From: Escherichia coli
GTDB lineage: Bacteria > Pseudomonadota > Gammaproteobacteria > Enterobacterales > Enterobacteriaceae
NCBI RefSeq assembly: GCF_024223415.1
Contig: NZ_CP100500.1
Length of the DNA: 64,000 nucleotides
Reading direction: 5' to 3' (one strand)
Part shown: piece after piece, positions 51,001-54,000 of the stretch
Layout: each line of letters opens with the position of its first letter
How positions within the stretch are numbered: position 1 is the first letter of the stretch
Program-made: the position numbers

Positions 51001-54000
51001 GATCCACCGCAAGTTCGCCGCTGAGCATATAGGCCAGCCAGTCGCTGATCATGGTGATGGTTGATGCCTGACGGTAAATATCGGAACGATGGTGCGCCAG
51101 CCAAAGTAATCTGGGGATGGCACTTAAAGCCAGTGTTTGTCCGGTCGCGCGATAAACTTCGTTTTCAAAGGTATTGTTGTGCAGTTCTTTAAGTTCGCTA
51201 ACTTCGCGCGCCGCTCTGGCATCCACATTGGCGCAGGCCCAGATCGGTGTTCCTTCATTGTTATATAAAACAATGCCTTCACGCATCGAACATGCCGAAA
51301 CGGCAGCGATATACTCCGGGGCTATGCCGGCGTTGTGCAACGCCTGGCGCATACACTCACACGCCAGTTGCCAGTTTTTGTTGAGATCAAATTCCATAGA
51401 ACCAGGAACGTCCGGTACTGCCAGATGCCGCCACTCCGCCTGTCCCACTGCTATTTGATTGCCTTCCAGGTCGAATATCACAGCCCGAATACTTCCGGTG
51501 CCTGCATCCAGCGCCATCAGGTAGTTCTTTGATTCTGAAGGGGTAAAGAGTCGAGCCATTAGATTATCCTCGGCTTATGCGTTCTGTCTGTTCCTCTATA
51601 CGTTCTCCATCATTCCCGGTAATAAGGTCATGCAAATTTAACTACGTAAAATCGCCGCTGCTGTGTCCTGATCGGTAACCAGTGCGTTGATATAACCGCC
51701 TTTCATTGCAGCGGCAATTGCTTCGGCTTTATTTTCTCCCCCTGCCACGCCAACCCGGACGGGTATGGTCTTCAGCGCGCTTAAAGGTAAGCCAATCAGT
51801 TCGTTATGTATTTTGATATCCGTGACAACGTCACCTTTTGCATCAAAAAAGTAGCCTAAAATGTCGCCAACCGCCCCTTTTCGGCCAATCATTAACTGTT
51901 CGCCCTGGCTGATATAACCGGAGCGAATGATCGTCGCGTCGTCTTGTTGACTCACGGCCCCAATGCCGACAATCGCCACATCCGCTGCTTGCGCGGCTAA
52001 CAGAACATCTTTGACGCAATTTTCATTTTTTAGCGTACGGGCAATGTCAGCGGAGGATGCCCGCAACGGAGCCGGAATAATATTCACACTGCACGCCGCA
52101 TTAAGCTGTCCGATACCCGTCATATAAGAACCGACGCCACCGGAGAGCGTGACCAGGCGAATTTGCTGTGACGAAATAAAACCACTTAAGCGTTGCAGCG
52201 TATTCATGGTTGCCTCGCCAAAACCAATCGCCAGCATCTGTTGTGGTTGAAGTAAACTCATCAACATATGCGCCGCACCTATCCCTAGTCGCCCGCCGAC
52301 ATCAGCATCCGCAAGCCCAGGGATCACCCGGACATGTTGCAGCGAAAACTGACGACGTAATTGAGTTTCATATTCCAGACAGCCTTCAAAGCGAGAATTA
52401 ATCTGTACGCGAATAATGCCGGACTGATGCCCTTTCTCCAGTAATCGCGACACTTTCAAACGTGTCAGGCCGAGACGATCGCTGATCTCGCTCTGGGTCA
52501 GCCCGTCGTGATAGTAAAACCACGCGATCCGCGCGACCTGTTCTTCTTCACACATTCCCTGTTCTGAAATTACCGAATCGTTGATTGTCATAATTCATTC
52601 TTCACTTTGAACATATTTAAATCTTTAATGCAATTGTTCAGTTCTTGCGCATTTATATCTGTGATGGCAACCACAGTTTGACTCTACGAGCATGAACAAA
52701 CGCAACCGTGAAAATCAAAATAGCATAAATTGTGCTCTATTCGTCGGAAATATGTGCAATGTCCACCTAAGGTTATGAACAAATTAACAGCAGAAATACA
52801 TTTGTTCAAAACTCACCAGCAAAACTGAACGGGGGAAATATGCAAACGAGTGATACCCGCGCGTTACCGCTACTTTGCGCCCGCTCGGTTTATAAACAGT
52901 ATTCAGGGGTCAATGTCCTGAAAGGCATCGATTTTACGTTGCATCAGGGGGAGGTCCACGCCCTGCTCGGCGGCAATGGTGCCGGTAAATCGACGTTAAT
53001 GAAGATTATTGCCGGTATTACCCCTGCTGATAGCGGTACGCTGGAGATTGGGGGCAGCAACTACACCAGATTAACGCCAGTTCATGCTCATCAGCTGGGT
53101 ATTTATCTCGTTCCCCAGGAACCGCTGCTTTTCCCAAGCCTGTCGATAAAAGAAAACATCCTGTTTGGGCTGGCAAAAAAACAGCTCTCCATGCAGAAAA
53201 TGAAGAACTTGCTGGCGGCGCTGGGCTGCCAGTTTGATCTGCATAGTCTGGCAGGATCGCTGGATGTCGCCGATCGCCAAATGGTGGAAATCCTCCGCGG
53301 GCTGATGCGCGACTCGCGGATTCTGATCCTCGATGAACCTACCGCCTCGCTTACCCCTGCGGAAACCGAACGCTTGTTTAGTCGCTTGCAAGAGCTGCTT
53401 GCTACTGGCGTGGGTATTGTTTTTATCTCGCATAAGCTGCCGGAAATTCGCCAGATTGCCGATCGAATTAGCGTGATGCGCGACGGAACCATCGCCTTAA
53501 GCGGCAAAACCAGCGAACTGTCTACCGACGACATTATTCAGGCCATCACCCCAGCGGTACGGGAAAAATCGCTCTCTGCCAGCCAAAAATTATGGCTGGA
53601 GTTACCTGGCAACCGCCCACAACATGCCGCAGGAACGTCGGTGCTGACACTGGAAAATCTGACTGGCGAAGGTTTCAGGAATGTCAGCATGACGCTAAAT
53701 GCCGGAGAAATTCTGGGTCTGGCTGGGCTGGTGGGTGCCGGACGCACAGAACTGGCCGAGACGCTCTATGGTCTACGTACTTTGCGTGGCGGACGCATTA
53801 TGCTGAATGATAAAGAGATCAATAGATTCTCCACTGGAGAACGTTTACTGCGCGGTCTGGTTTATCTGCCGGAAGATCGCCAGTCATCCGGACTGAATCT
53901 CGATGCTTCGCTGGCCTGGAACGTCTGCGCCCTTACTCATAACCTTCGTGGATTCTGGGCGAAAACCGCGAAAGATAATGCCACCCTGGAACGTTATCGT

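Follow-up and report, generated by a model that had tools for sequence, protein, structure and literature searches.

The lsr switch sets the time at which Escherichia coli takes up the interspecies signal AI-2 and destroys it, and is also in use as a synthetic-biology promoter. Class II promoters include galP1, where CRP is centred at -41.5.

The lsrR-lsrA intergenic region contains two 'boxes' bound by LsrR, with cAMP-CRP sites between the promoters (PMC5137460; PMC5983913; bioRxiv 10.64898/2026.06.09.730415), and lsr expression requires CRP (bioRxiv 10.64898/2026.06.09.730415). LsrR is active as a tetramer, which ligand disrupts (PMC5210515; PMC11229326). Binding of purified LsrR, and its release by phospho-AI-2, have been reported for fragments of the lsr intergenic region. 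The p-lsrR-box extends from -237 to -197 relative to the lsrA ATG (PMC5137460), and AACAAT and AAGATTTAA are its published mutationally important motifs (PMC5137460; PMC8487509). On the lsrA side, AAAACT and AAAACTGAA were called crucial (Xue 2009, as summarised in PMC8487509); later papers from the same groups described LsrR sites as merely AT-rich and of low similarity. A G-to-A change in TGTGCAAT, proposed as a CytR half-site, made the lsrA promoter 8- to 14-fold stronger, and CRPI was placed 'very close' to this octamer (PMC5137460). In Bacillus subtilis, the DeoR operator (39 bp, ATTGAACAAAATTTCAATTACCAATTTACATATGTTCAA) is bound by a DeoR tetramer (PDB 8R7Y; PMC11229326).

Materials and methods

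The sample was a 64-kb stretch of Escherichia coli DNA (the window) from assembly GCF_024223415.1, contig NZ_CP100500.1. The comparison set comprised 25 orthologous loci from approximately 10 genera, with 26 sequences in some spacing counts. The alignment in which the arms were most conserved covered nine genera, and conservation scores were calculated over eight. The mechanism discussed below draws on motifs and their statistics, conservation and fixed spacings, and homology to DeoR and its operator, all computed here, and on the literature for the two LsrR boxes, the active tetramer, the release by phospho-AI-2 and the CRP requirement.

Results

Positions 52592-52839 are the well-studied region that controls the divergent lsrR and lsrA genes of E. 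coli. A sequence-only reading of the window had placed a 248-bp region between the divergent AI-2 operons, and both the gene ends (Table 1) and the NCBIfam equivalogs agreed. LsrR scored 619.9 bits with NF011947 (LsrR equivalog; cut-off 486) and was near-identical to PDB 4L5I and 4GO1; LsrA scored 953.9 bits with NF011967 (cut-off 586), and lsrK, lsrC, lsrD and lsrB were likewise above their NCBIfam equivalog cut-offs. DNA of the lsr control region was found in 4182 of 5426 complete E. coli genomes. Control by CRP and LsrR, which the sequence-only reading had considered fitting, was upheld by gene identity, the literature, the conservation of the arms and the recurrence of the repeat at the p-lsrR-box. 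The three motifs of that reading are all genuine, in the places given, and conserved; the observation is correct but ordinary, being already known.

Table 1. Positions of genes and of known and candidate control elements in the window.
Feature	Position	Strand	Remarks
lsrR	51638..52591	-	317-aa ORF; SorC/DeoR-family repressor of lsr genes
O_R, lsrR-proximal candidate LsrR operator	52608..52640		Exact TGAACA-N21-TGTTCA; absent from the sequence-only reading
lsrR-side candidate CRP site TGTGATGGCAACCACA	52660..52675		9/10 match to TGTGA-N6-TCACA
O_M left arm ATGAACAAA	52692..52700		Conserved; putative vestigial central operator, full-site position 52693-52725
Second candidate CRP site TGTGcTCTATTCGTCG	52731..52746		Strong left half only; TGTGATCT... 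in K-12; absent from the sequence-only reading
TGTGCAAT	52753..52760		CytR half-site proposed in PMC5137460
Candidate lsrA -10 hexamer TAAGGT	52768..52773	+	29.5 bp from second CRP centre
O_A, lsrA-proximal candidate LsrR operator	52776..52808		TGAACA-N21-TGTTCA; the 9-bp inverted repeat of the sequence-only reading
'p-lsrA-box' motifs AAAACT (52808-52813) and AAAACTGAA (52821-52829)	52808..52829	+	Xue 2009, as summarised in PMC8487509
Shine-Dalgarno and lsrA start codon	52831..52842	+	GGGGG, aligns to GGAGG elsewhere; ORF start 52840
lsrA	52840..54375	+	First gene of lsrACDBFG; AI-2 ABC transporter ATPase

The inverted repeat TGAACAAAT...ATTTGTTCA occupied the whole of O_A. It had been read as tgaacaaat-N16-atttgttca; the 9-bp arms were present as claimed, but 15 nt, and not 16, separated them. 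The best description of the repeat is the 33-bp TGAACA-N21-TGTTCA. O_R, adjoining lsrR, had the same architecture. Both sites were located between lsrR and lsrA, and their overlap with the promoters is suggested by the geometry of the CRP sites and -10 elements. TGAACA-N18..26-TGTTCA occurred three times in 64 kb (0.07 expected); the exact N21 form with zero mismatches occurred only twice, both times within the 248-bp gap. TGAACA-N18-TGTTCA at 12320-12349 was rejected as a chance occurrence (wrong spacing, inside a 562-aa ORF), as was an N21 site with one mismatch at 20818, relaxed matches being at chance level (3 found, 3.4 expected).

O_R lay inside the p-lsrR-box (here 52603-52643), and both published motifs of the box fell within O_R as reverse complements, AACAAT at 52633-52638 and AAGATTTAA at 52617-52625. 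The lsrA-side motifs called crucial, as PMC8487509 summarises them, were 0-21 bp downstream of O_A, abutting the repeat and not inside it.

Over the 25 loci, the arms of the operators and of the CRP sites hardly varied, and neither did the N21 spacing, while the spacers drifted. The 25 loci all carried the exact O_A pattern, that of Buttiauxella (LsrR 64% identical) among them. O_A and O_R together, with 0-1 mismatch and N21 invariant, were found in Escherichia, Citrobacter, Kluyvera, Superficieibacter, Serratia, Mangrovibacter, Edwardsiella and Izhakiella. Conservation was concentrated in the arms (0.93-1.00, vs. 0.44-0.65 in the gaps), with 1.00 and 0.93 for the O_A arms (inner part, 0.72) and 0.98 and 0.97 for those of O_R (eight genera). 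The published lsrA-side motifs were poorly conserved, at 0.71 (AAAACT) and 0.61 (AAAACTGAA; eight genera), and the GG.GG columns of the Shine-Dalgarno alignment were invariant.

The CRP-like site claimed for the gap was recovered as TGTGATGGCAACCACA, matching 9 of 10 consensus positions and conserved in the orthologues. Sites of this kind with at most one mismatch numbered 4 in 64 kb (2.3 expected; 19 of 100 shuffles reached 4), so that a CRP match by itself is uninformative, the site count not being above chance. Within the site, CTGTGA was invariant (1.00), CCACA scored 0.93 and the spacer 0.44 (eight genera); it began 52 bp after the start of O_R in 24 of the 25 loci, and 51 bp after it in the other. 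Going by the order in the Figure 2 legend, this site is probably the 'CRPII' of PMC5137460. The half-site at 52731-52746 is probably 'CRPI': (T/C)GTGATC began exactly 45 bp before O_A in 26 of 26 sequences, and the left half was conserved at 0.89 with seven invariant columns. At 52735, the window had C and every other sequence A (TGTGcTCT vs. TGTGATCT in K-12). This A→C change, a minor new point, is private to the window strain and predicts weaker catabolite-dependent activation of AI-2 uptake there.

The tgaacaaa half-site claimed at 52693..52700 was found at those coordinates (TGAACAAA), inside the 9-mer ATGAACAAA, which occurred again at 52775-52783. In its TGAAC, the T, G, A and C were invariant in 12 sequences. 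At the aligned O_M position, TGAACA-N21-TGTTCA was found with one mismatch in Serratia sp. H1w and Edwardsiella hoshinae, and with two mismatches in Kluyvera, UBA5654, Superficieibacter, Izhakiella and Mangrovibacter yixingensis; Escherichia had four, all in the right arm (ATAGCA). The half-site appears to be what is left of a third operator in the middle of the region, still intact in Serratia and Edwardsiella; this, too, is a minor new point.

The sigma-70 consensus scan found no promoters, which is read as pointing to weak, activator-dependent promoters and not to promoter absence. The candidate -10 elements were weak (3-4 of 6 matches each); TAnnnT was kept at positions -8 to -3 from O_A in 26 of 26 sequences. 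No lsr transcription start sites were found in a literature search. The TGTGCAAT octamer showed poor conservation between genera (0.65 for the gap block 52747-52766).

LsrR belonged to the same SorC/DeoR subfamily as DeoR (E = 1e-46 with the NCBIfam DeoR model; E = 2e-28 with 8R7Y). Its recognition helix aligned with the DeoR helix ISRPTVSRLL, and the base-contacting R34 and R39 of DeoR corresponded to R44 and R49 of LsrR in the alignment. Their Salmonella equivalents, R43 and R48, are predicted contacts, and EMSAs were reported with Y25A, R43A and Y25A/R43A (PMC13218499). Against the DeoR right half-operator, the left half of O_R was identical at 15 of 16 positions and the right half of O_A at 13 of 16.

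Discussion

The known bidirectional control region very probably consists of two mirror-image CRP-promoter modules, in each of which tetrameric LsrR blocks the promoter until phospho-AI-2 causes its release. Each module would combine a CRP site with a weak -10 downstream of it, with CRP centres at 52667.5 (lsrR) and 52738.5 (lsrA) and putative -10 elements AACAAT on the minus strand at 52638-52633 (lsrR) and TAAGGT (lsrA). Each candidate -10 starts 29.5 bp from its own CRP centre, the geometry of class II CRP promoters, which suggests a class II mode and predicts transcription starts near 52626 (lsrR) and 52780 (lsrA). A 33-bp LsrR operator would overlap each core promoter and start, O_R covering about -14 to +19 and O_A about -4 to +29. 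If LsrR behaves like its B. subtilis homologues DeoR and CggR, each operator would hold one LsrR tetramer (a dimer of dimers), with its outer (T)TGAACA arms read by the conserved recognition helix. Phospho-AI-2 would break up the tetramer and free both promoters, which would then fire only with cAMP-CRP present.

A tentative extension concerns the operator and its ancestry. The LsrR operator conserved in evolution may be (T)TGAACA-N21-TGTTCA(A), a 33-bp palindrome like that of DeoR, rather than the short AT-rich motifs of the literature summaries, and the ancestral region possibly had three of them, approximately 83 bp apart, on one helix face and interleaved with two CRP sites; the central one would survive in Serratia and Edwardsiella, while decay in Escherichia and Citrobacter would have left only the half-site at 52692-52700. 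If this ancestry is true, LsrR tetramers could assemble cooperatively into higher-order complexes in some lineages.

It is rather unlikely that O_R, the central half-site and O_A act as one phased array, bridged by LsrR tetramers through DNA looping for a cooperative shut-off of both promoters. LsrR is a tetramer, the start-to-start distance from O_R to O_A was 166-168 bp (approximately 16 helical turns) in eight genera despite heavy sequence drift between them, and the central site was 83-85 bp (approximately 8 turns) from each flank. Constant spacing could, however, simply follow from two fixed CRP-promoter-operator modules, and in DeoR and CggR one operator fully uses one tetramer. Spacing was also 163 bp, out of phase, in Buttiauxella, and 285 bp in Buttiauxella sp. 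A111, with a 122-bp insertion and without the central site. Up-mutations in the p-lsrR-box (PMC5137460) were rejected as evidence of cooperation between O_R and O_A; they are uninformative on cooperation mediated by LsrR because they were selected in a host without lsrR.

On the lsrA side, LsrR could instead read the AT-rich AAAACT and AAAACTGAA, leaving the repeat to another factor or making it incidental. The motifs of Xue 2009, as given in PMC8487509, do map next to O_A, and the later descriptions of AT-rich sites with low similarity agree with this; it is nevertheless improbable, since both motifs were less conserved than the repeat arms, the same type of repeat occurs at the published p-lsrR-box, and LsrR has kept the arginines with which its homologue DeoR reads TTGAACA. 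A mutation of AAAACT would, moreover, damage the right arm of O_A as well, because AAAACT starts at the last base of the arm (52808) and covers the conserved A at 52809 (TGTTCAA).

That O_A acts as RNA, forming a hairpin in the 5' leader of lsrA that affects mRNA stability or translation, and not as a DNA operator, is hardly credible: 52770-52815 does fold as RNA to -9.3 kcal/mol (z = -3.2), but the O_R segment, with the same arms, had no matching fold and was at background (-3.9 kcal/mol, z = -0.2), pairing fell from 9 to 7 bp outside Escherichia without compensatory change, transcription is predicted to start within the left arm of O_A, and a structured element was rejected after the control region gave no Rfam match, no terminator-like site or T-run and no covariation.

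Confirmation of the motifs brings nothing fundamentally new. Several recent claims of LsrR regulation were based on loose AT-rich motif matches, and a clean operator definition, TGAACA-N21-TGTTCA with a DeoR-like reading, would allow true LsrR targets to be better predicted and aid the engineering of lsr-based promoters.

Compared with described systems, the locus is the same as the lsr region of E. coli K-12 (601 bp compared, 99.0% identity, 6 differences), with the published element order p-lsrR-box, CRPII, CRPI and p-lsrA-box; summaries of the K-12 literature, as far as they go, give short AT-rich motifs, in contrast with the 33-bp palindrome described here. With class II CRP promoters such as galP1, the lsr region shares the TGTGA-N6-TCACA form of the CRP site, the 29.5 bp from CRP centre to the first base of the candidate -10 on both sides, the lack of a recognisable -35 and CRP-dependent expression, although the lsrA-side CRP site has just one consensus half and the lsr transcription starts are predictions. 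The outer arms TTGAACA/TGTTCAA of the lsr operators recur in the DeoR operator (ATTGAACA...TGTTCAA; PMC11229326), and both DeoR and LsrR are tetramers controlled by a phosphosugar effector, deoxyribose-5-phosphate for DeoR and phospho-AI-2 for LsrR. The outer hexamers are 24 bp apart in the DeoR operator and 21 bp apart in the LsrR operators, and the DeoR system has a single operator, upstream of its one promoter, whereas the divergent lsr region combines a pair of operators (perhaps three in the ancestor) with CRP.

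Locus and distribution

The 248-bp gap at 52592-52839 had been read from the sequence as the lsrR-lsrA control region, which was borne out by the scores of the LsrR, LsrA, LsrK, LsrC, LsrD and LsrB ORFs (far above the NCBIfam equivalog cut-offs) and by the lsrR/lsrA annotation in matching genomes. Of 5426 complete E. coli genomes, 4182 contained the 601 bp spanning the gap, with identities of 99.0% (K-12) and 99.8% (best matches). The control region was missing from the other 1244 (about 23%), in keeping with reports that some E. coli lineages have lost AI-2 uptake in a patchy fashion. 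In strain WS0115A (NZ_CP035882.1) the match was in two pieces spanning 1378 bp rather than 601 bp, and an annotated IS1A transposase lay beneath it; an IS1 insertion lies within or beside the lsr control region of this strain. Compared with the near-identical strain SCU-316, the window lacked 3277 bp at about 48300, within the ECSE_1600-family autotransporter gene adjoining lsrK, and the remaining ORF is probably a truncated pseudogene.

Features of the lsrR-lsrA locus, with column identities from one sequence per genus (eight genera)
Feature	Coordinates	Strand	Column identity	Remarks
Autotransporter ORF	48101-49453	-		Start 49453 as in SCU-316; 450 aa vs about 1806 aa
lsrR	51638-52591	-		317-aa ORF flanking the gap
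O_R (lsrR-proximal operator)	52608-52640		Arms 0.98 and 0.97
CRP-like site	52660-52675		Arms CTGTGA / CCACA 1.00 and 0.93; 6-bp spacer 0.44	TGTGATGGCAACCACA
Half-site	52693-52700			TGAACAAA
Second CRP-type element	52731-52746			Strong left half only; overlooked in the sequence-only reading
O_A (probable lsrA-proximal operator)	52776-52808		Arms 1.00 and 0.93
lsrA	52840-54375	+		511-aa ORF flanking the gap
Intervening stretches			0.44-0.65

Two conserved sites, the probable LsrR operators

An inverted repeat with arms TGAACAAAT and ATTTGTTCA had been described next to lsrA; both 9-bp arms were present, and the sole slip in that reading was the spacer, which was 15 nt instead of 16. A search for TGAACA-N18..26-TGTTCA returned this site (O_A) together with a previously overlooked one adjoining lsrR (O_R), each with 21 nt between its hexamers; 0.07 matches were expected in 64 kb and three were found. 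With N21 fixed and zero mismatch, O_R and O_A were the sole two sites in the window, their starts 168 bp apart. The match at 12320-12349 (N18, within a 562-aa ORF) had the wrong spacing and was treated as chance, as was a one-mismatch N21 site at 20818-20850, relaxed N21 matches being at chance level.

A scan of representative genomes for LsrR gave 25 orthologous lsrR-lsrA loci, from Escherichia, Citrobacter, Kluyvera, an Enterobacteriaceae MAG, Izhakiella, Superficieibacter, Serratia, Mangrovibacter, Buttiauxella and Edwardsiella; one further match, a 30%-identical relative without adjacent lsrA, was left out. Twelve sequences from nine genera were aligned. O_A was exact in 25 of 25 loci; O_R had two mismatches in Buttiauxella and none or one in the remaining genera. 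The 21 inner bases drifted.

CRP sites and central half-site

The CRP-like site and the half-site were found as claimed. CRP-like matches in the window (4 vs 2.3 expected) did not exceed chance taken alone. The match at 52660-52675 is nevertheless a genuine conserved element, because its arms are conserved and distances are fixed across loci (52 bp from O_R start to CRP site start, 51 bp in one locus). In 26 of 26 sequences (T/C)GTGATC started 45 bp before O_A, and a TAnnnT hexamer occupied O_A-8 to O_A-3 in every sequence. The proposed control by CRP and LsrR is supported by the motifs, their conserved arms and the literature, which places both factors here. The lsr system is CRP-dependent with CRP sites between the promoters (PMC5983913; bioRxiv 10.64898/2026.06.09.730415), and the latter 2026 preprint reports these sites as conserved across Enterobacteriaceae. 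The Figure 2 legend of PMC5137460 gives the order p-lsrR-boxes, CRPII, CRPI, p-lsrA-boxes, and its text puts CRPI very close to TGTGCAAT (52753-52760); the site at 52660-52675 is therefore probably CRPII, and that at 52731-52746 CRPI.

Position 52735 was C in the window and A in K-12, SCU-316 and all 25 orthologous loci, which changes the lsrA-side CRP half-site from TGTGATCT (K-12) to TGTGCTCT. This was one of only three substitutions relative to SCU-316 across 20 kb, and the surrounding 76 bp had no full-length exact match among 4155 complete E. coli genomes. With C, weaker activation of lsrACDBFG by CRP is predicted; alternatively, the base could be a sequencing error.

Around the half-site, ATGAACAAA (52692-52700) was conserved, with T, G, A and C of TGAAC invariant in the 12-sequence alignment. 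At the same aligned position a full N21 site was present with one mismatch in Serratia sp. H1w and Edwardsiella hoshinae and with two in five other lineages; Citrobacter had three mismatches and Escherichia four, all in the right arm. The half-site is most simply explained as a remnant of a third operator placed centrally, between the two CRP sites; no mention of it was found in the lsr literature accessible to search.

Proposed mechanism

The region is probably organized as two back-to-back modules, each with a weak -10 candidate whose first base lies 29.5 bp from the CRP centre: 52667.5 and AACAAT (52638-52633, minus strand) for lsrR, and 52738.5 and TAAGGT (52768-52773) for lsrA. Class II CRP promoters show this spacing, which predicts starts near 52626 (lsrR) and near 52780 (lsrA). 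With these starts, O_R would span roughly -14 to +19 and O_A roughly -4 to +29, where LsrR tetramers would exclude or trap RNA polymerase; phospho-AI-2 would release the tetramers, with cAMP-CRP still obligatory. Inferred here are where transcription starts, that CRP acts in class II mode, and that each operator binds a single tetramer. A stringent sigma-70 scan found zero promoters, consistent with an lsr promoter described as very weak (PMC5137460).

Published LsrR boxes and alternative explanations

LsrR binds two intergenic boxes and represses both operons until released by phospho-AI-2 (PMC5137460). The p-lsrR-box (-237 to -197 from the lsrA start; PMC5137460) mapped to 52603-52643, and its important motifs AACAAT and AAGATTTAA (PMC5137460) both fell within O_R, as the reverse complements of 52633-52638 and 52617-52625. 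The lsrA-side motifs AAAACT and AAAACTGAA, as summarized from Xue 2009 in PMC8487509, mapped to 52808-52813 and 52821-52829, abutting O_A downstream and not within it. They were poorly conserved (0.71 and 0.61, eight genera); AAAACT shares its first base with the end of the right arm and takes in a conserved A at 52809, which extends the arm to TGTTCAA. The octamer AACTGAAC (52823-52830), just 5' of the lsrA Shine-Dalgarno, overlaps AAAACTGAA and, reverse-complemented, is identical to GTTCAGTT (52636-52643), which lies on O_R's right edge; the octamer includes a further TGAAC, partly conserved across genera as (T/C)GA(A/G)C.

Mutations in the TAATGCA hot spot (52626-52632, the centre of O_R) raise lsrA promoter strength, which was credited to lost LsrR binding (PMC5137460). 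Selection and assays of these up-mutations were done in strain LW6, without lsrR (PMC5137460). Because 52626-52632 lies between -10 and +1 of the modelled divergent lsrR promoter, relief from competition between the promoters could also explain the effect. The clustering of up-mutations in the p-lsrR-box (PMC5137460) was rejected as evidence for looping between O_R and O_A, as in a host without lsrR they are not attributable to LsrR.

The remaining evidence on looping was mixed: O_R and O_A were spaced 166-168 bp, with the central element 83-85 bp from each flank, but Buttiauxella had 163 bp and no central element, and one species of this genus 285 bp. In the latter (Buttiauxella sp. A111), a 122-bp insertion between the two CRP sites, relative to other Buttiauxella loci, left each CRP/operator module intact. 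O_A is unlikely to be an RNA hairpin of the lsrA leader, since its fold (-9.3 kcal/mol, z = -3.2) was not shared by O_R with the same arms (z = -0.2), the stem was shorter in other genera without compensation, and an Rfam search gave no match.

Comparison with known systems

LsrR is a SorC/DeoR subfamily member (NCBIfam) of solved structure (4L5I and 4GO1), and EcoCyc describes it as active only as a homotetramer, which ligand disrupts. The B. subtilis DeoR operator, ATTGAACAAAATTTCAATTACCAATTTACATATGTTCAA, was crystallized as its left half with DeoR; a model of the tetramer (dimer of dimers) bound to the whole operator was built from that structure, and by SEC the complex forms only with the full operator (PMC11229326). 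Base-specific contacts are made within TTGAACA by R34 and R39 (PMC11229326). These correspond to LsrR R44 and R49, because DeoR ISRPTVSRLL aligned with the LsrR helix (HMMER). In Salmonella numbering the latter are R43 and R48, both predicted DNA contacts, and EMSAs there covered the mutant proteins Y25A, R43A and Y25A/R43A (PMC13218499).

The lsrR-lsrA interval is a textbook-level regulatory region, correctly recognized and characterized before. Modest additions to the known picture are the mismatch between O_A and the published lsrA-side motifs, the strain-private CRPI half-site substitution, the putative vestigial central operator, and the operator as a palindromic 33-bp site paralleling that of DeoR. 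The DeoR operator has the same outer arms as O_R and O_A, and its right half was identical at 15/16 positions to the left half of O_R and at 13/16 to the right half of O_A, whereas its outer hexamers are 24 nt apart, the LsrR operator with 21 being 3 bp shorter.
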